This document shows, piece after piece, positions 1,894 to 62,488 of a DNA stretch of 64,000 nt. A program made the position numbers and the translations under genes. Position 1 is the stretch's first letter. Each line of letters opens with the position of its first letter. This DNA is from Candidatus Rifleibacteriota bacterium (lineage in GTDB: Bacteria > Muiribacteriota > Ozemobacteria > Ozemobacterales > Ozemobacteraceae): positions 13,688 through 77,687 of the forward strand of contig JADFZL010000026.1 of NCBI GenBank assembly GCA_015232575.1. The letters are read 5' to 3'. The notes under the pieces are model-generated. The model was not told where the DNA came from, ran no database searches, and saw only the letters and a list, made by a program, of their open reading frames with translations.

Positions 1894-1975
1894 AGAGCAC
1901 AAAGTGCTTTACCGCGGGGGTGGTCGGAAAAACTTGATCGACCGGTGAGAGGGTGTGCGTGCCCCTCTTATAAAT
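1894..1975 (+). repeat. X-type conserved intergenic element, copy 1 (three consecutive stem-loops: GAGCAC-aaa-GTGCTt; GGTCG-n12-CGACC; GAGAGGG-n8-CCCTCT; followed by TATAAA)
   Basis: Homologous over about 85 bp with 41546-41630. Stems are preserved with compensatory or wobble changes. Lies between the kinase stop codon and the next start. Confidence 0.6.
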
Positions 1976-1987
1976 GGAGACACTCAG

Positions 1988-2809
1988 ATGATCGCAATAA
2001 GAAATAAAAATACCATCAGAAATTCGACATGCATTGTTTTATTAACTGCTGTTTTCAGCTGGTCTTTCTGTATGCTGTCAATAGCAAACATCAGCCCTGA
2101 TACTTTAAGAATGCAATCTTCTCTTGAAAATGCGTTTCTGGTCGCATTCTCAAATAGCGATGCACTGAATTCGACCCGCGTATTTGACATACTCGGGTAC
2201 ACTGATGAACAAAAACGTACAATAACAAACGTGGTTCCAAAACCATCTTCACTGAGTGTATCATTCGAACCAGATTTAAGCGGTCCGGGGAAATTCAATT
2301 CCATTGAAGTTCTTTCCAGAAATACACATTTTTATAAATTGATAATTGATTCATGTAAACTGAATTTTAATAACGTTAATATCAATTCCCAATCACTTGA
2401 ATCAGGACGTATTCTATTTAACAACTTCGGGCAACTGGGGATCGAAACACGTGTCGCAACTACAGAAATATTGAAACTTTTTGAATATTTTTCTGATGCC
2501 AGAAAGATTTCAAATCTGAAAATGACGATGAAAAATTCTGAAATTCTTGTATCTGGAACAATAAAAAAAGGATTTTTTCCTGTGGAATTTCATTCTTATG
2601 GAAAACCTGTATTAGTTGGTAACGATAAAATAAATTTCAGATGCAGAAGACTCACTGTAAATGGCCTTCCCATGCCAAATGCAATAATTGAAAGCATCTT
2701 TTCAAAAATAAATCCGGTTTTTGATGTAAAAAGAACTTCTCTCAAACTTGTTCTGAAAAATGTCGAAGCAAAAGACGGATACATAATAACTAACGCTGAT
2801 TTGAGGTAA
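1988..2809 (+). CDS. hypothetical N-terminally membrane-anchored protein
   Basis: ORF with a hydrophobic N-terminus (CIVLLTAVFSWSFCMLSI) and a GGAGA Shine-Dalgarno about 7 nt upstream of ATG 1988. The track start (GTG 1955) lies inside the upstream hairpin and is less likely. No family recognised by eye. Confidence 0.55.
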   Translation: MIAIRNKNTIRNSTCIVLLTAVFSWSFCMLSIANISPDTLRMQSSLENAFLVAFSNSDALNSTRVFDILGYTDEQKRTITNVVPKPSSLSVSFEPDLSGPGKFNSIEVLSRNTHFYKLIIDSCKLNFNNVNINSQSLESGRILFNNFGQLGIETRVATTEILKLFEYFSDARKISNLKMTMKNSEILVSGTIKKGFFPVEFHSYGKPVLVGNDKINFRCRRLTVNGLPMPNAIIESIFSKINPVFDVKRTSLKLVLKNVEAKDGYIITNADLR

Positions 2810-2818
2810 AATAATTCA

Positions 2819-3556
2819 ATGACAGACAGAAGACTGTTTCGTATCGCCAGATCTCTCCATCAAAGGCAGCTTGACCTTATTATTGGTCTTGAAAAAGTTC
2901 ATGACCCGCACAACCTTGCTGCAATATTAAGAAGCGCAGATGCAACAGGAGTTGGAAAAGTTGTATGGGCACCAAACAATGAAAATCCGCTTCCACCCAA
3001 CCCGGAAGTCTCAAAAAGCAGCGAAAAATGGGTTGAACTTATCCAGACAACAAATTTTATTAATACCATGAAATCTTATAAAGATCAGGGGTTCAATATT
3101 GCAGCAACTCATCTGGGCAACACTTCCGTCGACTTCCGAACTCCAGACTGGTCGAAACCATGGGTTGTCATACTTGGCAATGAAAGGATCGGCTGCTCAA
3201 AGGAAATCCTGGAAATCTGTGACCTGAATATCCAGTTACCCATGATGGGACTTGTACAAAGTCTTAATGTTTCAGTTGCCACGGCGGTAATTCTTTATGA
3301 AATACAGCGTCAGAGGCAAAACAAGGGAATGTATTCACGTGTTTTACCTCCTGGTACAGTAAAAAGTCTTTTCGATTATTGGAAACTTGCAGAGGAAGGC
3401 ATTAAATTGGAAGATGTTCTTCAACCTCCGCCTTTTGAAATGGAAGTCCCTGATTCAGAACACCTTGATGGCAGAACAGCATTCCTTGAAAGAAGAAGAC
3501 TTGAAAAAGAGGCCAAACTTAAAAAAGCAGCTGAACACGTTGAGGAAATTCGATAG
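2819..3556 (+). CDS. trmH: TrmH/SpoU-family RNA 2'-O-methyltransferase
   Basis: SpoU motifs HDPHNLAAILRSADATGV and VVILGNERIGCSKEIL...LPMMGLVQSLNVSVATAVILYE. Confidence 0.8.
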   Translation: MTDRRLFRIARSLHQRQLDLIIGLEKVHDPHNLAAILRSADATGVGKVVWAPNNENPLPPNPEVSKSSEKWVELIQTTNFINTMKSYKDQGFNIAATHLGNTSVDFRTPDWSKPWVVILGNERIGCSKEILEICDLNIQLPMMGLVQSLNVSVATAVILYEIQRQRQNKGMYSRVLPPGTVKSLFDYWKLAEEGIKLEDVLQPPPFEMEVPDSEHLDGRTAFLERRRLEKEAKLKKAAEHVEEIR

Positions 3557-3602
3557 CCCTCAAAACTCCACGGTAACTCGGTAAATGGTGCGCATGCCCG
3601 TG

Positions 3603-3690
3603 CCATCTCGAACGAATGTGAGATATCTTATAAATACCAGATTTCTCCCTTCGGTCGAAATGACAAAATCAGAATTCTTGAGCTTAAGTT
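3603..3690 (+). repeat. Y-type conserved intergenic element, copy 1
   Basis: CATCTCGAACGAATGTGAGATATCTTATAAA...TTTCTCCCTTCGGTCGAAATGAC is nearly identical to 54157-54250 and to the reverse complement of 47107-47185. Confidence 0.6.
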
Positions 3691-3756
3691 GTACGCATGG
3701 GAAAATACCATGAGTTATTGCGCAGACGCTAGAAATGATTTAAAAAGGAAGCAGAA

Positions 3757-8687: not shown

Positions 8688-11069
8688 TTACTGACTCTGC
8701 TTTGTTTTCAGAGTATCATATTCTGCTTTGGCTTTATTCATTTCCTGTGCAACTTTCTGAGCGTCTTCCTGTCTGCCTTTTGCAATCATATCATTGTAGA
8801 GTCTGTAGAGTTCCTGATATTTTGCATAAGCAATCTGGACTTCTGAAGCATAAGTTCCAACAGGTTCTATTTCACTTGATGCCGAAACCTGCACATCCTG
8901 TATGTTTGCGGTTACTGGAATTTCGCTTGATCCTGCAACTGCACCAATTCCTACACTCTGACCCGGGTCAATTGTCGACTGATTATAAGGATTTGCTCCG
9001 GTAGGAGTCGCATAAGCCTGAGCTGGAATGCTGTCTTTGCCAAACAATTGCGCAATTTTATGAGCTGCCCAGTTTCCAACATAACCACCAACGATACCAC
9101 CTATTACTGTTCCTATCGGACCCAATGCAGAACCGAGTATTGCACCGGCTGTCGAACCAATTGTCTGTCCACCAACACCTATCCAGTCGATGTGTTTGAA
9201 AGCTTCTTTAATTGAGAATTTTCCATTTTTAAGATCACCGGCAAGATATGCTCCTACTGAACCACCAACGATTGAACCGAATGTCGGAGCAAGTGCTGAG
9301 AGAATACCACCTACAACCGGTACTGCTGTAAGGAATGGAACGAAGAATGATCCGGCAGCTGCACCAGTAACTGAACCAACAACACCACCTGCAAATTCTG
9401 CCGAACAAACAGTTTTTACAGCTTTCTTAAGACTTGGCTTTTCACCATTCATCATCTGAGTAACAAGATCAACACCAACAGTTATTCCAGCTGTCATAAG
9501 AAGATTCTTGGGGCTGAAACCTGACTTTACACTATCTTTAACATTCTGGAAACCCTGGTTAGTCATTGCCTTTCCAGCTTCATAACCCTGGCGTAATTTG
9601 CTGGATGTAACTTCTTTAAAACCAGGTTTTGATGAATCGCCCTGCTGTGAAGTCTGTGCTGGAACTCCATCGTCTCCAACCTGGCCATTCTGATTGCCCT
9701 GGTTGCCCTGGTTGTTCTGATTTCCTTGATTATTCTGATTACCCTGGCCTGGGTTTACACCATCATCACCGGTGTTCTGATTATACTGATTGCCCTGACC
9801 TGATTGGTTACCTTGTCCTGACTGGTTGCCTTGGCCACTCTGATTGCCCTGTCCTGACTGGTTGCCTTGACCAGATTGATTGCCCTGTCCGCTTTGATTT
9901 CCATGACCGGATTGGTTGCCCTGTCCGACCTGGCCTGACTGATTTCCTTGTCCTGACTGATTACCCTGCCCTGACTGATTTCCCTGCCCTGACTGATTTC
10001 CCTGTCCGGGAACATAACCATCGTCACCAGCAGTTCCCTGGTTATATTGGTTTCCCTGGCCTGATTGATTACCTTGGCCAGCTTGATTACCTTGGCCAGA
10101 CTGATTTCCCTGACCTGACTGGTTGCCTTGTCCGGCTTGATTACCCTGACCACTTTGATTGCCCTGTCCGGGAACATAACCATCATCAGTTGGGGTTGTG
10201 GTTGGTTTTGGTGTCTGACTTCCACGTCCAAAAAGTCTCGCAAAACGATCTTTGGCACTCTGTAAAGCATCGCCTATTTTACTACCGGTAGATTTTGCAA
10301 CTGTCTGACCAGACTGATTACCAGAATTAAAATTATCTCTTACATTCTGACCAAAGCTGCTGGCTTTATCACTAACTGCCTGCAAACCATCTTTTCCAGC
10401 CTGGTAAGTTTTATTACCAAAATTTTGTCCGCTTTCCCTGCCAGCGGTAAAACTATCTTTGATCTGGCTTCCATAGCCGCTGAGTTCATTCTTTATGAAA
10501 GAACCGGTGCTCTGATTTCCGCTCTGTCCAACGGTTGAAACTTTGCTGTCTGCTGCTGTAACGCCCTGAGAAACCTGAGCATTTTGTGTGGACTGGTTAA
10601 CCGGAACTGTTTGGCCACCTGCATTGGCATTATTGTACTGACCAGTCTGAACAGACTGATTTCCGGGAATATTCGCTTGACCGCCTGAATGATAAGGTGT
10701 TTGAACAGTCTGATTATTAGCTACTACACCTGCGCCCGACGGCGAAGTATTTACCTGAACTGGTTTCCCTGCACTTGTAGCTGCTGTAGTAGCGGCAGTT
10801 GATCCTGCAGAGGAATCGAAAAGAAGTTTGTAGTACTGACTCATTTCGAGTGCAATAGGTTTTCCATCAACATATCTTACGTTGTAATATGTTGTCCTGG
10901 TTCCAGTTTTAACAGGAACCCACTGTCCTGGGGTAATCTGGAAACTTGTACCATCAAGATTGGCAACAGTTGTACCCTGGTACGCCATCAATGGTGTTTC
11001 AAGAAGGAACCCAGCAATCAACACGATACACAACAACCTTGAAATTAGTCGAAGATGTTTTTGTTTCAT
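8688..11069 (-). CDS. secreted protein with Q/N-rich hexapeptide tandem repeats (GNQSGQ)n, glycine-zipper hydrophobic segments and a C-terminal coiled coil
   Basis: Signal peptide (LLCIVLIAGFLLETPLMAYQG). About 180 aa of GNQ(S/A)GQ repeats punctuated by DDGYVPGQ...GNQYNQ. GxxxG-rich segments (GGVVGSVTGAAAGSFF...; IGTVIGGIVGGYVGNWAA). Terminal helical heptads. Confidence 0.75.
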   Translation of the reverse strand: MKQKHLRLISRLLCIVLIAGFLLETPLMAYQGTTVANLDGTSFQITPGQWVPVKTGTRTTYYNVRYVDGKPIALEMSQYYKLLFDSSAGSTAATTAATSAGKPVQVNTSPSGAGVVANNQTVQTPYHSGGQANIPGNQSVQTGQYNNANAGGQTVPVNQSTQNAQVSQGVTAADSKVSTVGQSGNQSTGSFIKNELSGYGSQIKDSFTAGRESGQNFGNKTYQAGKDGLQAVSDKASSFGQNVRDNFNSGNQSGQTVAKSTGSKIGDALQSAKDRFARLFGRGSQTPKPTTTPTDDGYVPGQGNQSGQGNQAGQGNQSGQGNQSGQGNQAGQGNQSGQGNQYNQGTAGDDGYVPGQGNQSGQGNQSGQGNQSGQGNQSGQVGQGNQSGHGNQSGQGNQSGQGNQSGQGNQSGQGNQSGQGNQSGQGNQYNQNTGDDGVNPGQGNQNNQGNQNNQGNQGNQNGQVGDDGVPAQTSQQGDSSKPGFKEVTSSKLRQGYEAGKAMTNQGFQNVKDSVKSGFSPKNLLMTAGITVGVDLVTQMMNGEKPSLKKAVKTVCSAEFAGGVVGSVTGAAAGSFFVPFLTAVPVVGGILSALAPTFGSIVGGSVGAYLAGDLKNGKFSIKEAFKHIDWIGVGGQTIGSTAGAILGSALGPIGTVIGGIVGGYVGNWAAHKIAQLFGKDSIPAQAYATPTGANPYNQSTIDPGQSVGIGAVAGSSEIPVTANIQDVQVSASSEIEPVGTYASEVQIAYAKYQELYRLYNDMIAKGRQEDAQKVAQEMNKAKAEYDTLKTKQSQ
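9654..10187 (-). repeat. 18-bp tandem repeat array (encodes GNQSGQ), higher-order organised into three blocks
   Basis: The period-18 repetition CTGATTGCCCTGTCCTGA / CTGGTTGCCTTGACCAGA is visible directly in the DNA. The opposite-strand ORFs here are artefacts of the repeat. Confidence 0.85.
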
Positions 11070-20401: not shown

Positions 20402-21283
20402 ATGAAAAATTGGCGTATCAGGTTATCACTTTTTTCGGCAGTCATTATTTTTTCTGTTATTTTTCTTTCTGGCTGCGGAGGCGGCGGGGGATCAGGTGGT
20501 TCAGGTGGCGGAATAGGATTATATGAGGTTCCGTTTGTGAACAAATCAGCAGCAAGAATTTCAAGCCTTGGTGTAGGATATGATATTTCGGCATCTATTC
20601 AGGAAAGAAATAACCTCAATTTTGAACTTCTGAACATGAAAACTTATCGCTCTTTTTTCACAGGCCTTGGAACTGATATAAATCAGTCCAGTTATTTTTA
20701 TCAGGGTTCACCAGGTTTTATTTATGGTTATATGTTTGATTTTCCCGGGACAACAAGCGGAAATATTAAGAATGCACTGGTAAATGATTCCAGCTACAAC
20801 ATTTCAAGCAGAGATCCAAAAAGGCTTCAACCAAATGAGACAAGAACAATATCAACAAAGATTATGGTTGGGTATCCCGGTCAGAGTCGCCCATCTGGGT
20901 TTCTGGGAATTTTTATCACCAATAGTGAATACAAAGAATGGGTTTCACTTGGAAAACGCGGAATAAGATTTTACGTAACCTGGCAGGCTTTTGATGCAAA
21001 ATCAAACAATACATACAACATAGATGCTCCGTTGGAAGCATATTTCGATTACAATCTTACAACCGATCCTTATGACGGTGAAACTGATCCTTACAGCGGT
21101 GGGACCGGCAATACCGATCCTTACAACGGCGGAACTGGCAACACCGATCCTTACAACGGTGGAACCGGCAACACTGATCCTTACAGCGGTGGAACCGGCA
21201 ACACTGATCCTTACAGCGGCGGAAACAGTGGCACTGATCCTTACGCTCCCAGTTCAGGATACACAAATCCGTATAATCAATAA
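20402..21283 (+). CDS. lipoprotein with Gly/Ser linker and C-terminal (TDPYNGGTGN)x5 decapeptide repeats
   Basis: Lipobox LSGC, then GGGGGSGGSGGG, then five near-perfect decapeptide repeats at the C-terminus. Confidence 0.7.
   Translation: MKNWRIRLSLFSAVIIFSVIFLSGCGGGGGSGGSGGGIGLYEVPFVNKSAARISSLGVGYDISASIQERNNLNFELLNMKTYRSFFTGLGTDINQSSYFYQGSPGFIYGYMFDFPGTTSGNIKNALVNDSSYNISSRDPKRLQPNETRTISTKIMVGYPGQSRPSGFLGIFITNSEYKEWVSLGKRGIRFYVTWQAFDAKSNNTYNIDAPLEAYFDYNLTTDPYDGETDPYSGGTGNTDPYNGGTGNTDPYNGGTGNTDPYSGGTGNTDPYSGGNSGTDPYAPSSGYTNPYNQ
21060..21262 (+). repeat. 30-bp tandem repeats (ACTGATCCTTACAGCGGTGGAACCGGCAAC) x about 6
   Basis: GATCCTTA recurs every 30 bp from 21086 to 21236. Confidence 0.8.
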
Positions 21284-32670: not shown

Positions 32671-33714
32671 ATGGTTGAAACCTTATCACAGAATGAAATA
32701 GATGCTCTGCTTTCTGCGCTGAACGCAGGCGGAAGTCCTGCTCCAGATGCGGGTGGCGGTGGCGGAGGCGGCGGTGGAGCCGGTTTTTCTGGAAAAGGTG
32801 AAGCAGAGCGACCACAAAAAAAAGGAAAACTGTATGATTTCAAAAGACAGACAAAGTTTTCCAAAGAACAGATGGGTACAATCCAGCTTATCCATGAAAC
32901 ATTTGCCCGACTTGTTGGAACATATTTATCAACTGAACTGAGAGCCTATGCTCAGGCAAACATCGTTTCAGTTGATCAGTTGACATTCGAAGAACTTCTT
33001 CGTTCAATTTATTCGCCAACTTTTATTACAGGCTTCAGATCAGAAAAACTTGATGGAAAAGCACTTATAGATATAAATTTAAATGTAGTATTCACAATTC
33101 TGGACAGATTACTTGGTGGAAATGGTACACCGCTGGGCACTCTCAGGCAGCTGACAGAAGTAGAAAATCAGATAATGCAGAGAATAATGACACGTATTCT
33201 TGCCTTGCTCAGAGAAGCCTGGATAAACGTCGTAGACTTAACTCCCAGTATTGAATTTATCGATTCAAATCCGCAGTTTGCACAAATTGTCCCACCCGGA
33301 GACATGGTACTCGCTGTTGTATCAGAAATAAAAATACACGATGTAACGGGCCTGATGAATCTCTGCGTTCCATATAATACGATAGAATCGGTTGCATCAA
33401 AGCTGAACGCTGCCTCGTGGTTTGCAGCCATAAGAAAAGAACCGCTTTCGACAAACATCAAAGCTATTACTCATCAGGTAAGAAAAATTGATCTTCCATT
33501 TGTGGTTGAGCTTGGCACTGCAACACTTTCGCTGAATGACATCCTGAATCTACATCGCGGCGACATTTTAGTAACCGATCGTCTTGTTAAGCAGGATCTT
33601 GATATCAAAGTTGGAAATCTTATCAAATACAGGGGCCGTCCTGGTGTAATGGGAAAGAAAATGGCGGTCTCAATCACTCAGGTCATTGAAAATCCCGAGG
33701 AGGAGTTACCGTGA
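32671..33714 (+). CDS. fliM: flagellar motor switch protein FliM
   Basis: N-terminal [10 protein letters not shown] CheY-binding peptide and FliM middle domain. Contains a poly-Gly insert ([12 protein letters not shown]). Confidence 0.85.
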
Positions 33715-35153
33715 CAGATTTATTGTCTCAGGAAGAAATTGATGCTCTATTAAGAAGTGGTGGAAGTATGGGAGGCGGAGAAGAAACAACACCGCCGCCA
33801 TCGGCTCCGCCACCCTCTTCGCCGCCTCCACCTCCAAGACAGCCCCCTGTTTCCGCTTCGCCGCGTCCGCCGCAGCAGGCGGCTTCGCAAGCATCTCATG
33901 GTGGAGCAAGCAGGTCCCCTGCAGGTTCAGATGTATCTGCAGTTCTTTCTCCTGAAGAAAAAGAAAAGCTGACAGAAGTCGCAAAGCTTTCAATGGGTGC
34001 TACATCTTCTGTTCTTCAAATGCTCCTGAACAGGCAAGTTGATCTTTCCCTTTCCCAGATGCGAATTATGACCCAGGATGACCTTGCATCTGAGTTCCAG
34101 GGAAACGATATGATAATTGCAAAAATTTCATACGTTGAAGGTTTTGCTGGAAATTCATATCTATTGCTTGAAAAACCGGTCTCAGCAATCATCGGCGACC
34201 TGATGATGGGTGGTGATGGTGCAAATCCAGAATTTCAGGAAATGCACAAATCTGCCGTCGGCGAAATGATGAACCAGATGATGGGGAAGACTACTACGAC
34301 CCTGTCAGAAATTTTTAAAAAACGTGTTGACATTAACCCACCTAACGTGGATTTAATAAATTTCCAATCAGCCCCTCCGCAGATGGAAGACTTCAAGCCT
34401 GGTGCAAAATTTCTACGAATGGGATATCATCTCAAGGTTGGTCAGGAAATAAATTCTGAGATGATTCAGCTTCTACCGCTTGATTTTGCTAAAAGCATGG
34501 CCTCTGATTTAGCTCAACCATCGAAACCAGTAGCAAAAAAGCCAGTTCCCCCACCCCCTCCAATGAGCTCTGGCGCACCTGAACAACAGCAACCAGCTCA
34601 AATGATGCCTCCTGGCGGTATGCAAGGAATGCCCGGGATGGGCGGAATGCCTGGAATGGGTGGTATGCCTGGAATGGGCGGTATGCCTGGAATGGGCGGT
34701 ATGCCCGGCATGGGAGGTATGCCTGGAATGGGTGGTATGCCCGGCATGGGCGGTATGCCTGGAATGGGTGGCATGCCTGGAATGGGCGGTATGCCCGGAA
34801 TGGGTGGCATGCCTGGAATGGGCGGTATGCCCGGAATGCAGGCGGCGAACCCCGCGGAATTTGGAATGTTTCAGATGCCAGGCGGAATTGGCCTGCAATC
34901 GAACATTGATCTTCTGCTTGATGTTCCTCTTCAAATAACAGTTGAATTGGGACGAACAAAAATGTTAATAAAAGATGTACTTGAATTAGGTATAGGTTCT
35001 GTTGTAGAGTTAAATAAATTGGCAGGTGAGGCAGTTGAAGTTCTGGTTAATAATAAACTGATTGCCAAGGGCGAAGTTGTTGTTATTGACGAGAATTTTG
35101 CCGTAAGAATAACAAGTATTGTTAATCCGCAAGATCGATTGCAGGCTATCTGA
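33711..35153 (+). CDS. fliY: flagellar motor switch protein FliY (CheY-binding peptide - CheC-like domain - FliN/SpoA domain) with Pro-rich and (MPGMGG)n inserts
   Basis: [10 protein letters not shown] at the N-terminus. CheC-like middle domain. C-terminal FliN domain ([33 protein letters not shown]). GTG start overlapping the fliM stop. Confidence 0.8.
34617..34850 (+). repeat. 18-bp tandem repeat x about 12 (ATGCCYGGNATGGGNGGN, encoding MPGMGG)
   Basis: ATGCC recurs every 18 bp from 34629 to 34827. Confidence 0.85.
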
Positions 35154-40091: not shown

Positions 40092-40099
40092 AAAAAATT

Positions 40100-40125
40100 T
40101 GAACCTTTAGTTTCACTGAAGCGTA
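40100..40125 (+). promoter_or_regulatory. candidate ECF-type promoter (TGAACC-16-CGTA)
   Basis: Resembles the ECF/SigW-type consensus TGAAAC-N16-CGTA. Lies about 25 nt upstream of the AGGAGA Shine-Dalgarno of the anti-sigma gene. Confidence 0.4.
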
Positions 40126-40149: not shown

Positions 40150-40716
40150 ATGAATTGTGAAACTATAAAAAATAAATTGTGTGACCCTGAGAATCAATCT
40201 TTAACTCAGAATGAGAAACAGCATATTCAATCCTGTCCGTCATGCAAAAAAACATATAACGCAGAATACAAACTGCTGACGGGGTTTTCGTGCCTGAAAA
40301 GTTACGACTCCTGTCCTCCAAATTTAACCCAGAATATAATGTCCAGATTGAAATCAACACAACCTGCCTCTGAACCTTCAAGCTCAAGTTTTCAATATTC
40401 AGCGATGTCTCTGCCTGTTACTCTTACAATAGTTGGTGTACTCTGCGGAAGTATGTATTTCTATTCAAGCCATGGAAAGCTGAATCTTTCAAAGGGAAAA
40501 CCAGAAGCTCCGCTTACGCAGACCGGTACAGGTTCCGATTTCAGTCTTCAACAAAATATCGAAGAGAAAAATATACAGGCAAAAGCAACCGAAACTGTAA
40601 ATCTCATGAACACTAATGTAAATATTCAACCGCAAACAGGTTTAAAAGTAGGCCAGTCCTCTGAAAAGCACAATGACATAGTAGTACAACCCTCAACGCC
40701 AGTTTCGCCAGAATGA
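40150..40716 (+). CDS. zf-HC2 anti-sigma factor (membrane-spanning)
   Basis: H-x3-C-x2-C (HIQSCPSC) plus an upstream Cys, then a TM helix. Confidence 0.6.
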   Translation: MNCETIKNKLCDPENQSLTQNEKQHIQSCPSCKKTYNAEYKLLTGFSCLKSYDSCPPNLTQNIMSRLKSTQPASEPSSSSFQYSAMSLPVTLTIVGVLCGSMYFYSSHGKLNLSKGKPEAPLTQTGTGSDFSLQQNIEEKNIQAKATETVNLMNTNVNIQPQTGLKVGQSSEKHNDIVVQPSTPVSPE

Positions 40717-40818
40717 TTATATTGAGATATCTTTCATAAATTGATATGATGATATTATGTCAAAAATGAGGTGTTCAATCATAAATAAATATTCAAAAAT
40801 ATATGGGCTGATAATGAA

Positions 40819-41373
40819 ATGACTGATTCAGAAACCGATTATATTATCAGGGCAAAAAAAGGCGATCTCAAAGCATTTGAGCGATTGGTTTCCAGCTATC
40901 AGAAAAAAGTGTTTACCTATCTTTTTCACTTCACTGGTGATCAAAGTAATGCTGAAGATTTGACTCAGGAGACTTTTATTTTATTTTTTCGGAAGATTCA
41001 ACAATATGATGCTTCCAGAGCCCTGTTATCATGGTTGATTACAATAGCAAAAAATATTGCAATTTCATCCTGTCGCAAAAGGAAGCCTGTAACACTTGCT
41101 CCGGAATGTTTTTTATTGATGCCTTCTGAAAAGCGAAATTCACCAGAAGACCAGGCAGAATCGAGGGAACTTGCTCTCGAGGTGCAGAAAGCACTTCAAA
41201 GTCTATCAGAAGAATCAAGGGAAGTATTAATTATGAAATATATTATGGATTTCTCAATAGAAGAAATAGCAAAACACCAGGGAATACCTGCTGGTACGGC
41301 AAAATCCAGACTCTTTAAAGCCAGAAGCGACATCAAAAATATAATTCTGAAGGAAAACGTTTCTGAATCATGA
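40819..41373 (+). CDS. ECF-family RNA polymerase sigma factor
   Basis: Region 2 (FERLVSSYQKKVFTYL...EDLTQETF) and region 4 helix-turn-helix (IEEIAKHQGIPAGTAKSRLFKAR). Confidence 0.8.
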   Translation: MTDSETDYIIRAKKGDLKAFERLVSSYQKKVFTYLFHFTGDQSNAEDLTQETFILFFRKIQQYDASRALLSWLITIAKNIAISSCRKRKPVTLAPECFLLMPSEKRNSPEDQAESRELALEVQKALQSLSEESREVLIMKYIMDFSIEEIAKHQGIPAGTAKSRLFKARSDIKNIILKENVSES

Positions 41374-41545
41374 TTTAATGAATTGTTTGGGCCAAATCTA
41401 AATAAGAATTCGTGGAAATTAAGGGTGATGCACTGGCTGAAGAACTCTTTACCTGCATCTGAGAACACGTAAGTCTTAAATCTATGAAAAAGCGTCATAC
41501 AAATTTGAACACAGGTTGCGCGAACACCAGAAGATGCGTCCCATG

Positions 41546-41630
41546 AGAGCACATAGTGCTCGAACGCTGGGAGTGAGACGGTCGAACTTGTTCGACCGGC
41601 GAGAGGAGGCGCATGCCCCCTCTCTAAAAG
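41546..41630 (+). repeat. X-type conserved intergenic element, copy 2 (GAGCAC-ata-GTGCTC; GGTCGAA-cttg-TTCGACC; GAGAGG-n11-CCTCTC; TCTAAAAG)
   Basis: Aligns with 1894-1975. Stem 2 is extended by compensatory base pairs. Confidence 0.6.
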
Positions 41631-41658
41631 TAAATAAAATAATTTAAAGGAGAGATAT

Positions 41659-42528
41659 ATGAAATTTAGAAACAGGTTTATGTGTGGATTCGTGTGTTTC
41701 GTTTTCGCTGCTGCCCAGATTTTCTCTTCGGGCATATTATTGGCAGAGACTTCAAAGGAAGTCACAGCTGATAACATTACAAATTCAGTTAATGATGCAG
41801 GAAAAACTGTAAATTCAACCAAATCACAGATGGGAAGCGTTCAGAACGAGCTTGACAGCGCAACAAAAAAAGCCCAGGATGCCGATAATGCAGAGGCCCG
41901 CAGGGCTATTGATGACATCAACAAGGCTCAATCCGATATAACAACTGCAAATCAGAACATTGACAAGTTACAGAACCAAATGTCAGGAGTTGGAACTGCT
42001 GCACAATCTGTTGCTAATGGCCTGCAAGCCGTTGGAAACGTAACGAGCCTCAATCAACTTGCAGAAACTCAATCAAAGGTTCAGAAAGGTCTTGTAAAAG
42101 TAGGAAGAGTCCTTCAACAAGTCGGCTCCATGATAAAAACGATTGGAACCGCCTTGATGGCTATCGGACAAGCCCTATCAGCAACAGGGTTTGGTGCAGC
42201 AGCCGGGGCAGCTATGATTGCTGCTGGAAAAGTCATGTATGCAGCCGGTTATGCAATTGAAGTTGTGGGAACTGCCATGGACAAACTCGGTTCTGACGCA
42301 GCAAATGCCGATAAAATTTTTACTACTGGTGCAAATTCATTATTTTCTGCTGCAAAAAATGGTTATGCGCAGGGAAGAGTTGAAGCTGATCAAGTTGCAG
42401 CAAATGCAAAACAAAAAGTTGACAGTGCAAAAACCGCCATTAGTAATGTTTCAAGCTCAGTGTCTCAGGCAACATCCGGAGATCCGGTAATTGTTAATCC
42501 ACCATCTTCACCTTCAAATCCGGAATAG
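41659..42528 (+). CDS. secreted Ala/Gln/Gly-rich alpha-helical protein with Gly/Ala-zipper segment
   Basis: Signal peptide, then low-complexity helical sequence (TGFGAAAGAAMIAAGKVMYAAGYAIEVVG). Confidence 0.6.
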   Translation: MKFRNRFMCGFVCFVFAAAQIFSSGILLAETSKEVTADNITNSVNDAGKTVNSTKSQMGSVQNELDSATKKAQDADNAEARRAIDDINKAQSDITTANQNIDKLQNQMSGVGTAAQSVANGLQAVGNVTSLNQLAETQSKVQKGLVKVGRVLQQVGSMIKTIGTALMAIGQALSATGFGAAAGAAMIAAGKVMYAAGYAIEVVGTAMDKLGSDAANADKIFTTGANSLFSAAKNGYAQGRVEADQVAANAKQKVDSAKTAISNVSSSVSQATSGDPVIVNPPSSPSNPE

Positions 42529-42664
42529 TAGAATAGTTTACCAAGCATCGCCTCAACAAGACAGCCTTTCATCTCCCAGATAGAAACCAAGTATAAGAAA
42601 TTAAGGGAGAGGAAGATTGTGATTGTTGAGGCATGGTTCGTTTAAACAGCGCGAAATTATTTTA

Positions 42665-44521
42665 ATGAAAATTTCTGACAAAATTGCGGCAATGTTAGAT
42701 CAGTTGCCTGGAAAACCTGGTGTTTATATTATGAAGGACAACCAGGGAGATATTATTTACGTCGGAAAGTCTCGAAACCTTAAAAAGCGCGTTTCTTCAT
42801 ATTTCAAGTTGAAGAGCCGCGACAGCAAGACAGTCAGGCTTGTATTAAACATTGAAACATTTGAAATAATTGTTACTTTTAATGAAATTGAAGCTCTGAT
42901 ACTTGAAAACAATCTCATTAAAAAGCATAAACCACGCTACAATGTCAGACTCAAAGACAGTAAGACGCATCCGTATCTGGCAATAACACTGAAAGAAGAG
43001 TTTCCACGAGTAATAAAGGTCAGAAAAGTTTATTACAATGACGGAAACAAATATTTCGGGCCCTTTCCTGATGAGAGCGGCTTAAGATTTGTAATGGACG
43101 TTATCAGCCGTGTTTTTAAGTTGTGTACATGTACTTCGCCGGTCGATTCGAAAAGAAAAAAAAATCACGGATGTCTGAAATATTCAATTGGAACGTGTCT
43201 CGGGCCATGTCTCGATAAAATTTCCAGAAAAGATTATCATGTAAATGTCAAAAGTCTGCTGAAATTTCTAAGCGGCAGAAAGATTCCGAATCTTGAAGAA
43301 ATGAAAAACAGAATGGCTCTTCTTTCTTCTGAATACCGTTTTGAGGAAGCCGCTGTTCTGAGAGACACTATTTCTGCACTTGAAGGATTCTTTACAAGAC
43401 AGAAAGTTGAAATGCAGAAACCCTATAACAATGATTTCTGGGGAATTGCGGAATCAAAAAATCATATTGTCGTTTCAGTTTTCTTTCTGCGTGGCGGAAA
43501 ACTGCTGGGCAACAGAACAATTCCGTTTGAAAGAAACACTGATGATTCAACAGAGAAAATAATCGGAAATCTGATGTGTCAATTTTACAGCACTAATTTG
43601 ATTCCACCAGCTATTATTATGAATAAAAAACCTTTCCCATTCGATGCAATTCTCGGTTTTCTGAGGAATAAATCATCAAAAGAAATCAGAATTGTACAAA
43701 TAAAAAAAGGCAGCAGAAAAAAACTCCTTGAAATGGCCGAGGAAAATGCTCTTGAATCAATGCGAAACATTGAATCAACAACAGAAGTCAAATTATCTGC
43801 CGGTGTCATTGATCTTGAAAAGCAACTGAATCTGCCAAAAGTTCCAATGAGAATTGAATGCATTGATATTTCACATAACCATGGTGAAGACTGCGTTGCA
43901 TCGCTGGTCGTTTTCTCGAATGGAGAACCAAGAAAAAGCGACTACAGAAAATATTATATACGCAATACTACTGGAATTGATGATCCGGCATCGATTAATG
44001 AAGTCGTTGATCGAAGACTGAAAAGACTTATTAAAGAAAAACAGAGCTTTCCTGATCTTCTGATTGTCGATGGTGGCGCTGGTCAGGTCAGTGCAGCCAG
44101 AAAAGCATTGCTTGAAAACAATGTCAACATACCACTTTTTGGACTTGCCAAACGTGAAGAAATTCTTTATTCCATTGAAAAAACACAGATTAAGCTCCCA
44201 ATAACCTCACCCGGAATGAGAATTCTGATCAGATTGAGAGATGAAGCCCACAGATTTGCAAACACTTTTCAGAGAACCTCAAAAATTAAAAGAGTTGTAA
44301 GATCATCGCTGCTTTCTCTTCCGGGGGTCGGCATTAAAACCCTGCAGAAAATCATCTCCGTTTTTGGCTCATTAAATAAAATAAGCACTGTTTCTCTCAA
44401 AGAATTCAGAGAAAGATGTTCTCTGCAGGAAAAAATCGCCGAGCTAATTTATAATACCATTACCCCGCCAGCATCTGACCGGCCTGATAAGCCTGTTCCA
44501 AAAGTTCAGGACGGTCCTTGA
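42665..44521 (+). CDS. uvrC: excinuclease ABC subunit C UvrC
   Basis: GIY-YIG (PGVYIMKDNQGDIIYVGKSRNLKKRVSSYF), UvrBC-interaction and RNaseH-like/HhH C-terminal regions. Confidence 0.85.
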   Translation: MKISDKIAAMLDQLPGKPGVYIMKDNQGDIIYVGKSRNLKKRVSSYFKLKSRDSKTVRLVLNIETFEIIVTFNEIEALILENNLIKKHKPRYNVRLKDSKTHPYLAITLKEEFPRVIKVRKVYYNDGNKYFGPFPDESGLRFVMDVISRVFKLCTCTSPVDSKRKKNHGCLKYSIGTCLGPCLDKISRKDYHVNVKSLLKFLSGRKIPNLEEMKNRMALLSSEYRFEEAAVLRDTISALEGFFTRQKVEMQKPYNNDFWGIAESKNHIVVSVFFLRGGKLLGNRTIPFERNTDDSTEKIIGNLMCQFYSTNLIPPAIIMNKKPFPFDAILGFLRNKSSKEIRIVQIKKGSRKKLLEMAEENALESMRNIESTTEVKLSAGVIDLEKQLNLPKVPMRIECIDISHNHGEDCVASLVVFSNGEPRKSDYRKYYIRNTTGIDDPASINEVVDRRLKRLIKEKQSFPDLLIVDGGAGQVSAARKALLENNVNIPLFGLAKREEILYSIEKTQIKLPITSPGMRILIRLRDEAHRFANTFQRTSKIKRVVRSSLLSLPGVGIKTLQKIISVFGSLNKISTVSLKEFRERCSLQEKIAELIYNTITPPASDRPDKPVPKVQDGP

Positions 44522-46980: not shown

Positions 46981-47106
46981 AAAATAGAACCTGGGGTTTA
47001 ACCACGGAAAACACGGAATTTAAACTTGAAAATTATTTGTACCTATCCAATAAATGGTGTATTATCTTCCCCGAATTATTGAGAAGATACGAATATTTGT
47101 AAGTTG

Positions 47107-47185
47107 ACAACTTTGCTGTCTTTTCGACCGAAGGGAGAAATCCTGCTTTTATAAGATCTCTCACATTCGTTCGAGATGACAGCTT
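47107..47185 (-). repeat. Y-type conserved intergenic element, copy 3 (inverted orientation)
   Basis: The reverse complement reads CTGTCATCTCGAACGAATGTGAGAGATCTTATAAAAGCAGGATTTCTCCCTTCGGTCGAAAAGAC. Confidence 0.6.
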
Positions 47186-47258
47186 AATTCAAGGTTAACA
47201 GGCAAATTTGACCGCTTTATTTGAAACTGACTACTGAATAGATAAGGCAGGGTAAGCG

Positions 47259-49958: not shown

Positions 49959-50057
49959 GAAAAGAACTTGTTATTTGATGCTGATTTTTAAGATTTTCTG
50001 ATATTTTTCTAAATAAGCATTCCTGTCATTAAAAAGAAATAAATATTCTTATGTTAA

Positions 50058-50098
50058 AACTATTGGAACAAAAATACTATTTATTCTGTTTTACAAAT
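50058..50098 (+). promoter_or_regulatory. TTGGAACAAA promoter motif (copy A) upstream of the ECF sigma gene
   Basis: CTATTGGAACAAAAATACTATTTATT lies 41 nt upstream of the ATG. GGAAC is the typical ECF -35 core. Confidence 0.45.
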
Positions 50099-50110
50099 TA
50101 GAGGGGAAAA

Positions 50111-50662
50111 ATGAGCTTGGAAATAAACAAGGTAAACCCCGGAATTTTGTTAGACGAACAGTTAATAAAAGATTTTCAGAAAGGTTCTGAAGAGGCATTT
50201 GAAGTGCTCTTCGACAGATATTTTCAAAAAATCTTTTGTTATACTTTTTCTTTTTTGAAAGATCATGAAGAAGCAAAAGACTTAACGCAGGAAATATTCT
50301 ATAAATTATACAAAGGGTTGAAAACTTATCAGGAACAAGGGAAATTCAAAAGTTGGATGTATTCTGTCGCAAGACTGACAATCATTAACAGATTCAGAAA
50401 GAAGGGAAAGGAAATAGTCTCTTGTGACCAGGAACTCGTTGAGACAACAGGAATGTCCGATTCGGACAACTCTTCCGGGGGTAATGATTACTTGTCATCT
50501 CTTTCAATTGTCGAAAGAGAAATTATTTCCCTGAGAATTCTGGAAAAACTACCTTACGAAAAAATATCTGAAATTACATCCCTTTCTACCAGCTATTTGA
50601 GGAAAGTTGTTTTCAGAATATTAAATAGGTTCAGATCAGAGGTTTCAAAAAATGAAATGTAA
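50111..50662 (+). CDS. ECF-family RNA polymerase sigma factor
   Basis: Region 2 (FEVLFDRYFQKIFCYTF...DLTQEIF) and region 4 (LPYEKISEITSLSTSYLRKVVFR). Confidence 0.8.
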   Translation: MSLEINKVNPGILLDEQLIKDFQKGSEEAFEVLFDRYFQKIFCYTFSFLKDHEEAKDLTQEIFYKLYKGLKTYQEQGKFKSWMYSVARLTIINRFRKKGKEIVSCDQELVETTGMSDSDNSSGGNDYLSSLSIVEREIISLRILEKLPYEKISEITSLSTSYLRKVVFRILNRFRSEVSKNEM

Positions 50663-51623: not shown

Positions 51624-51714
51624 GAATTTTTCGACTTATTTATTGGTTAAACGCGGGTTGGAGAGTTTCTGATTAAATTGAATGCAAAATTTCAGAATAC
51701 TTTGCTTTATTAAA

Positions 51715-51775
51715 AATATTGGAACAAAAAAGCATTATTTTGCAATTTATTACTTAGGAAGTAAATTTAAAAAAT
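51715..51775 (+). promoter_or_regulatory. TTGGAACAAA promoter motif (copy B), extended 58-bp conserved block
   Basis: AAAAATATTGGAACAAAAAAGCATTATTTTGCAATTTATTACTTAGGAAGTAAATTT is near-identical to 62428-62485. Confidence 0.5.
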
Positions 51776-54050: not shown

Positions 54051-54156
54051 TAGATTTCTGTTTCAATATATCGTTTTTGTTAAACCGAAATTTGCCTTCT
54101 AAGTAGGCAAAATCTTAAAGAAGGAAGCAAATTTGCGTGTTAACATTTGGGTGGGC

Positions 54157-54250
54157 TGTCATCTCGAATAAATGTGAGATATCTGATAAAAGCGAGATTT
54201 CTTCCTTCAGTCGAAATGATATAGTAGAAATTCTGAAGCTTAAATGACTC
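54157..54250 (+). repeat. Y-type conserved intergenic element, copy 2
   Basis: CTGTCATCTCGAATAAATGTGAGATATCTGATAAAAGCGAGATTTCTTCCTTCAGTCGAAATGAT...GAAATTCTGAAGCTTAAATGAC. Confidence 0.6.
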
Positions 54251-54329
54251 CTTTATTAAGATTTGCTGTACAAAGGTAACTATGGGTTTGAGAGTTTATG
54301 ATTAAGTACGAGTCGGATATGGGAAAGAG

Positions 54330-59876: not shown

Positions 59877-59923
59877 AATCATTTTCAATTAATTTATGGG
59901 CTTGTTGTACAATTACATTATCG

Positions 59924-59949
59924 TTAGTCCAAAGACCTTGTGGACGTTT
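59924..59949 (+). repeat. 26-bp direct repeat, left copy (TTAGTCCAAAGACCTTGTGGACGTTT)
   Basis: 24/26 identical to 60827-60852. Confidence 0.8.
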
Positions 59950-60826
59950 GTTAGTATTACGAAATGTGTCAATCTTTTTGAGACAGTTCAAGAAAAAAAT
60001 TCAGGGCAATATCCTGACTGAATAAAGACCTATTCTCCAGATACTTACTTCGCCTCTTGTCGTCATGGACGCCAAAAGCTTACCCTTTTCTATACGAAAT
60101 TTTTTTCTTACTGCCCTCACCTTCGACGAACAGTACGGAATCCTGAATCTGAGGAATGCAAAAGGAGCACCCAATAAACTGACCGATCTTTTCCGCCTCC
60201 CCTTCCTTTTCTTTGAAGTGCTGGCGGCGAAATGCGTGTGACAATTCATACATCGTTCCGTCCTGCCAAACGGCAACGAGACGGTATGCCCAATATGTTC
60301 CGTATCGACCGCTGATCTTTTCCCCCTGGAATCCAAGGCCCAATATGCCTTCAAAGGGCTTGAAGGATAGCTCTCTGGAAAAGCCCCTGAATGAAATAAT
60401 CCCGTAAATGCCTTTGCGTTTCTGGTCAATACAGACATCATCCCGAGCAAAATTCCTGAGAAAGATCAGCAGAATTCCCATTCCCATTACCAAGTGTCCG
60501 AGAGGCGCCCACCACCGGTCGAAAGACGAGGTGTGGGGCATCACGCTCATCAGATAACAATACCCACTGACCCCCAAGACGAGCCAGGGAAGGACAAGCA
60601 GGATTCCCAGACGATGATATCCAAAGCCTATCGTCATTCTGCCTCTGGCTGAATCGAGATGAATTTCTGTCTGAGGTAATACGGTCATCATGATAACATC
60701 CTCCTGAAAATACTCTCCGGTTATACTGCTAGACTTGCAGAACTCACTACAACTTTGATAATTACCCCATTATCAGACAAGTTTTACCTGTTTCGTTTAG
60801 ATCATATTTGTTTTTTAAAATTATCA
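59950..60826. mobile_element. GC-rich (about 50%) 0.9-kb islet bounded by 26-bp direct repeats; candidate horizontally acquired cassette
   Basis: Base composition contrasts sharply with flanks of 35% GC or less. Contains a single gene. No recombinase gene present. Confidence 0.4.
60080..60691 (-). CDS. hypothetical membrane protein (2 TM + soluble domain) within the GC-rich islet
   Basis: 203-aa ORF with GC-rich codon usage. Helices LGILLVLPWLVLGVSGYCYLM and LGHLVMGMGILLIFL. Confidence 0.6.
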   Translation of the reverse strand: MMTVLPQTEIHLDSARGRMTIGFGYHRLGILLVLPWLVLGVSGYCYLMSVMPHTSSFDRWWAPLGHLVMGMGILLIFLRNFARDDVCIDQKRKGIYGIISFRGFSRELSFKPFEGILGLGFQGEKISGRYGTYWAYRLVAVWQDGTMYELSHAFRRQHFKEKEGEAEKIGQFIGCSFCIPQIQDSVLFVEGEGSKKKISYRKG

Positions 60827-60852
60827 TTAGTTCAGAGACCTTGTGGACGTTT
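60827..60852 (+). repeat. 26-bp direct repeat, right copy (TTAGTTCAGAGACCTTGTGGACGTTT)
   Basis: See left copy. Confidence 0.8.
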
Positions 60853-62375: not shown

Positions 62376-62427
62376 TTTCATGGGCTATTGTACCGCAGAA
62401 AAAAACTTACAAAATAAATAAAATAAA

Positions 62428-62488
62428 AATATTGGAACAAAAAGGAGTATTTTTGCAATTTATTAGGTAGGAAGTAAATTTTCTAATG
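62428..62488 (+). promoter_or_regulatory. TTGGAACAAA promoter motif (copy C), extended 58-bp conserved block
   Basis: AAAAATATTGGAACAAAAAGGAGTATTTTTGCAATTTATTAGGTAGGAAGTAAATTT. Confidence 0.5.

Follow-up and report, generated by a model that had tools for sequence, protein, structure and literature searches.

A candidate structured RNA motif of three hairpins in intergenic DNA of Riflebacteria

A 64,000-nucleotide stretch of a Candidatus Rifleibacteriota genome (GenBank contig JADFZL010000026.1, positions 13,688 to 77,687; the whole stretch is called the window here) contains two copies of a previously uncatalogued element of about 85 bases, designated X, that forms three hairpins and is absent from Rfam. 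X is a genuine element: it is non-coding and strand-asymmetric, compensatory changes preserve its helices, and its copies occupy non-orthologous sites, one of them on a contig from a second member of the Riflebacteria. Tentatively, we favor the reading that X is a cis-acting structured RNA module of mRNA leaders and intercistronic spacers, in which the last hairpin (P3) might act as punctuation and a single-stranded linker might bind a factor. On present evidence X is a solid but small candidate motif and no surprise.

The two window copies lie on the plus strand at 1894-1976 and 41546-41632 and align end to end, with 60 of the 83 aligned bases identical (72%). Their GC contents are 0.54 and 0.57, against 0.392 for the window, in agreement with the initial annotation, which had described two aligned GC-rich copies. 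The 22-mer AACTTGNTCGACCGGNGAGAGG occurs exactly in both; its chance expectation is 0, no shuffle of the window yielding a shared 22-mer. Searches with nhmmer within the window recovered the copies with E values of 1e-25 to 1e-26, and a covariance model (R1) was built solely from these two sequences. No third copy, complete or degenerate, was found in the 64 kb by nhmmer, blastn or the covariance model with its filters off. The parts of the two copies are as follows, with helices numbered P1 to P3 and the linker between the first two denoted J1/2.

1894..1976, plus strand: X copy 1, 83 nt (model R1, 74 bits, E 1.5e-16)
1894..1910, plus strand: copy 1 P1, AGAGCAC-AAA-GUGCUUU, 7 bp including one G-U pair (fold and pair table)
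1911..1921, plus strand: copy 1 G-rich linker J1/2, ACCGCGGGGGU (three-copy alignment)
1922..1943, plus strand: copy 1 P2, GGUCG, a 12-nt loop and CGACC (fold, alignment and RNAalifold)
1945..1971, plus strand: copy 1 P3, GUGAGAGGG(U)GU-GCGU-GCCCCUCUUAU, GC-rich at its top and with an A/G-U/C base; the tail UAUAAAUG comes next (fold)
41546..41632, plus strand: X copy 2, 87 nt (model R1, 106 bits, E 1.8e-24)
41547..41561, plus strand: copy 2 P1, GAGCAC-AUA-GUGCUC (fold)
41562..41578, plus strand: copy 2 linker J1/2, GAACGCUGGGAGUGAGA (alignment)
41579..41598, plus strand: copy 2 P2, CGGUCGAA-CUUG-UUCGACCG, 8 bp (fold and RNAalifold)
41601..41624, plus strand: copy 2 P3, GAGAGG-A-GGC-GCAU-GCC-C-CCUCUC (fold)
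41625-41632, plus strand: copy 2 tail, UAAAAGUA (3' of P3)

Both window copies fold into three consecutive hairpins: P1 (GAGCAC-ANA-GUGCUY), P2 (built on GGUCG...CGACC) and P3 (GAGAGG...CCUCUY), the last with a GC-rich top and a GCRU loop. RNAalifold, to which the helices were not supplied, predicted the same three, with P2 longer by two pairs, so that the earlier claim of three hairpins kept in both copies agrees with the individual folds and with the consensus. Fold z-scores were modest for copy 1 (-1.75 to -2.4) and stronger for copy 2 (-3.3 to -4.5). The proposal in the initial annotation that the second hairpin was extended from 5 to 7 bp by paired changes did not survive inspection. In copy 1, AAA replaces UCG in the 5' arm and the GGUCG arm is displaced 4-5 nt upstream, which indicates a register shift rather than covariation; P2 of copy 1 is a degenerate, register-shifted form of a helix that measures 8-10 bp in the other copies. 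Comparison of copy 1 with copy 2 revealed only one-sided changes (G-C/G-U and C-G/U-G) and zero double compensatory substitutions.

Double-sided covariation becomes visible only once a third copy is compared. The open reading frame (ORF) that follows copy 1 (1988-2809) has one detectable distant homologue (40% identity), and this led to a 4.3-kb contig, locus L025, of another Riflebacteria-like metagenome-assembled genome (MAG; GCA_016192885.1). There, a hidden Markov model of the two window copies identified a third X at positions 2956-2877 on the minus strand (nhmmer, E 0.0027 against 1.5 Mb), and under the two-copy covariance model this hit reached 44.6 bits (E ~3.5e-10). The sequence is an independent third member, with an identity of 69% to copy 2 and 57% to copy 1. 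The TrmH proteins of the two genomes bearing X are 49% identical, and X itself is conserved across two deeply diverged Riflebacteria.

In the three-copy alignment, 87% of the pair cells are paired; displacing the 3' partners by 1-3 columns lowers this to 38-51%. Four double-sided compensatory pairs are present, at least one in each helix (A-U to G-C in P1, two G-C to C-G in P2 and G-C to A-U in P3); the remaining pair changes include several one-sided G-U transitions. Helices are thus kept by compensatory substitutions across homologues in a sample of three sequences, and the covariation is suggestive. The GCRU loop of P3 is kept throughout, the linker core A-CGC-GGG is kept in three of three copies, and UGAGAC is common to copy 2 and the L025 copy. 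The tail after P3 reads UAUAAAUG or CUAAAAGUA in the window copies and is kept in the alignment as UAUARA or CUAAAAG. X is strand-asymmetric, with G-U pairs favoring the given strand: G-U pairs outnumber A-C mismatches by about 6:1 on that strand (our count over the consensus structure). Folds of the sense strand are better than antisense folds for copy 1 (-29.8 versus -21.9) and the L025 copy (-40.8 versus -36.5); copy 2 folds slightly better antisense. Each of the three copies is open in one frame, but the indels among them (2 nt and 1 nt) shift the frame from copy to copy and, not being multiples of three, indicate that X is not coding. The initial annotation had seen a structured RNA-type element rather than a random similarity. 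That view is upheld by a third copy that keeps all three helices and contributes the compensatory pairs, by the G-U strand bias and by the non-triplet indels.

Two further pairings were considered from the alignment. A pseudoknot between ACGC of J1/2 and the GCGU loop of P3 was rejected, given that the loop of copy 2 is GCAU with no compensating change. The 5' GAGAG (GAAGG in L025) could alternatively pair with the CUCUC of the 3' arm of P3 (CCUUU in L025), an unsupported candidate noted on inspection.

Searches for known relatives were negative. Rfam 15 at gathering thresholds gave zero matches over the whole window, and at E<=10 it returned for both loci only noise of 10-17 bits, far below gathering scores. 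ARAGORN called 0 tRNA or tmRNA genes in the window and in L025. A pattern scan of genome contigs with CTTGNTCGACCGGNGAGAGG gave 24 loci, all single chance matches in unrelated, mostly GC-rich taxa; a scan of metagenome contigs with GAGCACNNNGTGCN{20,46}GACCGGNGAGAG gave 56 loci, all in GC-rich coding DNA; and of two exact-pattern viral scans, one gave chance matches only and the other zero. Matches were judged to be due to chance by direct reading and covariance-model scoring. A blastn search of plasmids with X was empty. The covariance-model search that the initial annotation had recommended turned up a further copy with covariation, and no match to a tRNA or a REP-type repeat emerged; both outcomes speak in favor of the element.

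The genetic context of the window copies bears on what X might do. Copy 1 begins at the base after the TAA (1891-1893) of a gene for a hybrid histidine kinase with receiver and Hpt domains and takes up almost the whole 94-nt spacer between that stop codon and the Shine-Dalgarno (SD) sequence of ORF 1988-2809. Upstream of copy 2, at a distance of 172 nt, is an extracytoplasmic function (ECF) sigma factor gene (40819-41373) with an anti-sigma-like gene before it. Both copies lie directly downstream of signal-transduction regulator genes; each has the same orientation as the genes that flank it, and the distance from its end to the next SD is 4 nt for copy 1 and 16 nt for copy 2. The start regions of the genes that follow are these.

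1976..1990, plus strand: SD GGAG (1976-1979) and ATG (1988) of ORF 1988-2809 (read from the sequence)
41659..42528, plus strand: ORF downstream of copy 2, 289 aa, coiled-coil-like, with a signal-peptide-like N-terminus (SD GGAG at 41649-41652)

Copy 1 ends 11 nt before ATG 1988 and copy 2 ends 26 nt before the ATG of ORF 41659-42528, and the translations of both ORFs have hydrophobic, signal-peptide-like N-termini on inspection; the annotated placement of X just upstream of the start codons of exported-protein genes was borne out to this extent. ORF 1988-2809 (gene1) encodes a Riflebacteria-specific protein that is always in an operon with TrmH, and a gene for a TrmH-type SpoU methyltransferase lies downstream of it here. 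Its product matches MBF0410605.1 (HQM10_24895), a protein of a Candidatus Riflebacteria MAG, at every residue; a separate exact-protein look-up returned no record for either downstream protein. No homologue of the ORF 41659-42528 protein was detected, and the UvrC gene follows that ORF. The remainder of the window is ordinary chromosome, with genes for MutS, flagellar switch proteins, a methyl-accepting chemotaxis protein, amidases, transketolase and radical SAM enzymes.

At both window copies, a promoter/terminator scan called no sigma-70-like promoter between X and the gene, so any transcript carrying those SDs would also carry X. No U-tract follows P3 in either copy (CUCUUAUAAAU or CUCUCUAAAAGU follows the stem), and the scan calls neither as a terminator, though canonical terminators occur elsewhere in the genome (for example, 8672-8653). 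A P3 that lacks a U-tract fits the need for transcription to read through to the downstream gene. In minimum free energy folds the SDs are unpaired, except for a 4-bp UUCC/GGAG helix in copy 1. No promoter motif shared by the regions upstream of the three copies was found. A 20-codon ORF (MKKRHTNLNTGCANTRRCVP, 41484-41546, plus strand), with no obvious SD, has a TGA that on inspection directly abuts P1 of copy 2, mirroring the kinase stop codon that abuts P1 of copy 1; L025 contains no such ORF. The abutment of a stop codon and P1 at both window copies is probably a coincidence; were it none, it would be relevant to a translation-coupled mechanism.

The arrangement in L025 is different. The third copy is intergenic and divergent from the neighboring ORF, and its P3 is a canonical terminator, with an A-tract, a 6-bp G/C stem and tetraloop (GGGGGC-GCGU-GCCCCC) and then UUUUAU. 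A promoter-like sequence, TTCTCA-16-TATAAA, is present about 35 nt upstream. This organization resembles a stand-alone small RNA (sRNA) gene, or else the scar of an insertion or rearrangement. The L025 TrmH (221 aa) ends right after the conserved DGR(T), with its stop codon within the reverse complement of the X tail (L025 2865-2876), and all other homologues (P0003-P0073) extend 12-35 aa further. These observations suggest that X, or a larger piece carrying X, replaced the variable K/R-rich TrmH tail in L025. A search downstream of X in L025 for the displaced C-terminal tail of TrmH produced no more than a weak match of low complexity (E 0.007, uncorrected for multiple testing), which was not relied on.

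Regions of ±10 kb around TrmH from ten other Riflebacteria lineages (L202-L233) were also collected and searched with the covariance model, filters off. The gene1-TrmH operon is conserved in these lineages, usually directly after UvrC with overlapping stop and start codons. In most Riflebacteria (L204, L208, L213, L222 and L232), the order is (hypothetical)-UvrC-gene1-TrmH, and gene1 overlaps the UvrC stop. The cluster is split in the MAG studied here and in its closest relative, L202, where gene1-TrmH follows a hybrid histidine kinase gene and UvrC is about 40 kb away. L202 has the same kinase-gene1-TrmH order as the window, with 62% identity of the kinase through to its C-terminus and 45% identity of gene1. 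In the window, gene1-TrmH occupies 1988-3556 and UvrC 42623-44521, and X copies head both separated parts. Taken together, the three X copies sit at non-orthologous sites and in both orientations relative to their neighbors.

The favored reading can be set out as a sequence of steps, each of them conditional. X would be a lineage-restricted RNA of about 85 nt, in which three hairpins in tandem are combined with a G-rich linker, single-stranded and conserved, and with a conserved UAUARA-type tail. It would be transcribed on the strand shown and would act in cis on the mRNA that carries it, its hairpins folding co-transcriptionally. The strong terminal P3 might then punctuate the transcript, by terminating it leakily or by protecting an end, and might in this way stabilize the downstream exported-protein cistron or free it from coupling to the regulator gene upstream. 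The unpaired linker could dock a factor acting in trans, more likely a protein than a small ligand, and this factor would tune the effect. A cis-acting mRNA element is favored by the co-orientation of the window copies with their neighbors, their proximity to the SDs, the lack of room at copy 1 and the failure of the scan to call a promoter or terminator at either.

Several observations weigh against this reading. Zero copies of X were found in the ten other gene1-TrmH loci (about 190 kb of non-redundant DNA), and in L202 the annotated gene1 ATG overlaps the kinase stop codon (ATGA), with nothing X-like after it. The L025 copy lies outside any leader, convergent to TrmH and with its tail overlapping the TrmH stop codon; the nearest same-strand gene is about 565 nt upstream and there is no gene downstream. 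Neither SD sequestration nor anti-terminator logic is visible in the window copies, and a plain stabilizer or terminator has no need of a conserved single-stranded linker. Covariation is also thin with three copies in an alignment that was partly fitted, and 11 of 500 column shuffles reach the observed values. A gene-specific leader, which would lie consistently 5' of related genes, is opposed by the placement of only two of the three copies 5' of genes, these two being unrelated to each other. The suggestion in the initial annotation of a cis-regulatory leader of exported-protein genes therefore draws weak support: it fits the two window copies, but not the L025 copy, the ten loci devoid of X, the unrelated downstream genes or the failure to detect an expression platform. 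The sRNA alternative in the same annotation stays a candidate of low probability.

A dispersed and possibly mobile structured intergenic repeat of the BOX, ERIC, REP-BIME or miniature inverted-repeat transposable element (MITE) kind, able to reach new intergenic locations, passively co-transcribed and with hairpins kept for recognition at the DNA or RNA level, is a possible though doubtful alternative. It would account for the three non-orthologous sites in both orientations, the absence of X from the orthologous junction in L202 and the ten other TrmH loci, and the early TrmH stop codon in L025, whose location within the reverse-complemented X tail has the look of a scar left by an insertion or rearrangement. 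The 64-kb window with two copies and the 4.3-kb contig with one amount to a density that would be very unlikely for an element present in one to three copies, except that all three copies lie near the gene1-TrmH operon and that linkage could explain it. A second structured repeat family in the window ('Y', three copies in both orientations) and a short motif near X in L025 that recurs near a Y copy, suggestive of mosaic modules, point the same way. X resembles pneumococcal BOX, ERIC/IRU, REP/BIME and Neisseria Correia elements in being short (40-150 nt), hairpin-forming, intergenic (including within operons) and co-transcribed, and in occupying non-orthologous sites in either orientation alongside other repeat modules (here Y and the short motif, motif 2); such elements can be terminators, stabilizers or processing sites. 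It differs from them in lacking terminal inverted repeats, a target-site duplication and a GTAG head, in the failure to see a RAYT or transposase, in numbering two copies per 64 kb at 72% identity, and in having, in place of one palindrome, a single-stranded linker and three hairpins that differ from one another. By inspection, the ends of X share only the 5-nt GAGAG/CUCUC, and no transposase, RAYT or Y1_Tnp domain was present among the ~35 window ORFs scanned against Pfam. A recent burst is opposed by the in-genome copies, which at 72% identity are no closer than copy 2 and the L025 copy (69%). Degenerate copies were absent from the window with filters off, the ~190 kb of other Riflebacteria gave none, and the genome, metagenome and viral pattern scans yielded nothing beyond chance. 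REP/BIME elements are single palindromes of 20-40 nt with a 5' GT(A/G)G head, usually clustered in alternating orientation; X, with three different hairpins, no GTAG head and solitary copies, was rejected as a member. Such elements also go with a cognate RAYT (an IS200-like Y1 transposase) and number tens to hundreds of copies. A MITE was likewise rejected on inspection, the flanks TTAA/TATAA, CATG/TAAAAG and TTGA/TATAG giving no consistent duplication and no terminal inverted repeat being evident. Slightly less likely is a set of trans-acting sibling sRNAs of ~85-110 nt, with P1 and P2 as structural parts, the G-rich linker as seed and P3 as terminator, whose expression the adjacent hybrid kinase or ECF sigma factor might control. 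The L025 copy, with its promoter-like upstream sequence and canonical P3 terminator, would suit such an arrangement, as would the position of both window copies directly 3' of regulator genes. Paralogue identity of ~70% and a conserved unpaired stretch are typical of sibling sRNAs such as Qrr, csRNA and LhrC. Like X, Qrr1-5, the streptococcal csRNAs and Listeria LhrC1-5 measure ~90 nt, have two or three hairpins, the last GC-rich, and are ~70% identical among paralogues; they are encoded beside regulators and often control envelope or exported proteins. The window copies, unlike these, have no U-tract and no room for a promoter, and their single-stranded region is G-rich rather than a C/U-rich anti-SD. 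In particular, copy 1, extending from stop codon to SD, leaves no space for a promoter and terminator of its own. The window P3 helices lack U-tracts in a genome that has canonical terminators; upstream of the three copies no common promoter motif was found, and no target was identified.

A ligand- or protein-sensing riboswitch-like leader, present in several copies and switching heterogeneous exported-protein genes, is improbable. The leader position of both window copies, the conserved junction nucleotides and covarying stems, and the multi-copy, non-orthologous distribution familiar from second-messenger riboswitches would be in keeping with it, and the alternative GAGAG/CUCUC pairing may hint at two conformers. 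The c-di-GMP-I riboswitch (GEMM, RF01051) offers a parallel, being ~85-110 nt long, with divergent paralogues before unrelated, often exported or hypothetical genes, covarying stems and conserved junction bases. X departs from it in having tandem hairpins with no enclosing P1 and thus no closed multi-helix junction, in scoring nothing in Rfam even at E<=10, in offering no recognizable expression platform, and in including one copy that is not upstream of a gene. Moreover, its stems are nearly as conserved as its junctions, the L025 copy has no gene to control, and only three examples are at hand. It is a comparably long shot that X defines a new class of signal-responsive leader RNA in Riflebacteria (a riboswitch or the target of an RNA-binding regulator), with the linker as sensor and GAGAG/CUCUC as switch, placed before exported or envelope protein genes beside two-component or ECF regulators. 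Least credible is a DNA-level element in which three palindromes side by side in a promoter region would bind protein, as operators or as a recombination site. In its favor, every hairpin is an inverted repeat in DNA, a hexamer (TATAAA, TATAGA or TAAAAG) follows P3 in all copies, and copy 2 has a slightly better antisense fold. Compensatory changes, though, keep pairing and not sequence; G-U pairs become A-C mismatches on the opposite strand; no matching -35 element is present; and TATAAA as a -10 element would put the start site after the SD of gene 1988. By hand, neither sigma-54 nor ECF promoter spacing fits: a sigma-54 promoter requires GG-N10-GC and X has 8 nt, and before copy 2 the ECF boxes GAAC and CGTC stand 11 or 26 nt apart instead of 16-17. 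Rho-independent terminators resemble P3 of L025 but not P3 of the window copies, and they leave two further hairpins and the linker unexplained. CsrA-type GGA decoys (GGA positions not conserved), ANTAR/RAT hairpins (wrong loop sizes) and an integron attC site (no R/L boxes) were each set aside on inspection only.

If X is a functional RNA, it would be among the first non-coding RNA families defined for Riflebacteria, a candidate phylum for which we know of no cultured model and almost no RNA annotation, and it would single out two exported-protein genes, otherwise anonymous, as being under special control. Should X instead prove to be a dispersed repeat, then X, Y and the other repeated motifs would show that this lineage has mosaic intergenic repeats comparable to BIME and BOX, which would be useful for assembly, for strain typing and for the study of how operons are punctuated. 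In both cases, complete genomes can be searched directly with the covariance model.

Other repeats in the window were recorded alongside X. Family Y comprises 3595-3699 (plus strand), 54148-54254 (plus strand) and 47101-47203 (minus strand). Its core of ~70 nt, TGYCATCTCGAAYRAATGTGAGAKATCT...AGATTTCTYCCTTCRGTCGAAAWGAYA, forms one long imperfect hairpin (z-scores of -3 to -5 for two copies); no Y was found in the fetched Riflebacteria relatives or in Rfam, and the family looks REP/ERIC/MITE-like. The short non-coding motif CCCCGARTTATTGAGAAGWTACG, 23-33 nt long, occurs at 47057-47092 in the window and at 2992-3026 in L025, both on the plus strand (23 nt at 91%, E 0.003), 36 nt from X in L025 and 9 nt from a Y copy in the window. 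Its minus strand reads as promoter-like (TTCTCA-15/16-TAWAAT). It may be another mosaic intergenic repeat module, and it is a possibility that X is itself one module of such a system.

Two observations concern ECF-type promoters. A 58-nt repeat, TAAAAATATTGGAACAAAAA..TTTTGCAATTTATTA..AGGAAGTAAATTT, is located at 50055-50112, 51711-51768 and 62424-62481 (plus strand), directly upstream of three genes, among them the gene for a sigma-70/ECF-like factor (50111-50662); its appearance is that of a GGAAC-type (ECF) promoter or leader common to a small regulon. An ECF-type promoter-like sequence, GAAC-17-CGTAAT (TTTGAACC-N16-CGTAAT), is found at ~40096-40125, upstream of the anti-sigma/ECF sigma operon (40150-41373). 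Its 10-mer AAATTTGAAC recurs at 41501-41510, 36-45 nt upstream of copy 2, with no correctly spaced CGT box.

Tandem coding repeats were seen in three genes: one with an 18-nt period at 9690-10200 (minus strand), in the gene for a 793-aa Gly-zipper protein (8688-11069); one with a 30-nt period (TDPY..GGTGN) at 21046-21274 (plus strand), in ORF 20402-21283; and one with a 9/18-nt period at 34581-34868 (plus strand), in a FliN/CheC-like gene (33711-35153). Finally, a 33-nt direct repeat (91% identical; 59917-59949 and 60820-60852, plus strand), its two units 903 nt apart, brackets a minus-strand ORF (60080-60691) and could represent paired regulatory sites or an insertion- or att-type duplication.

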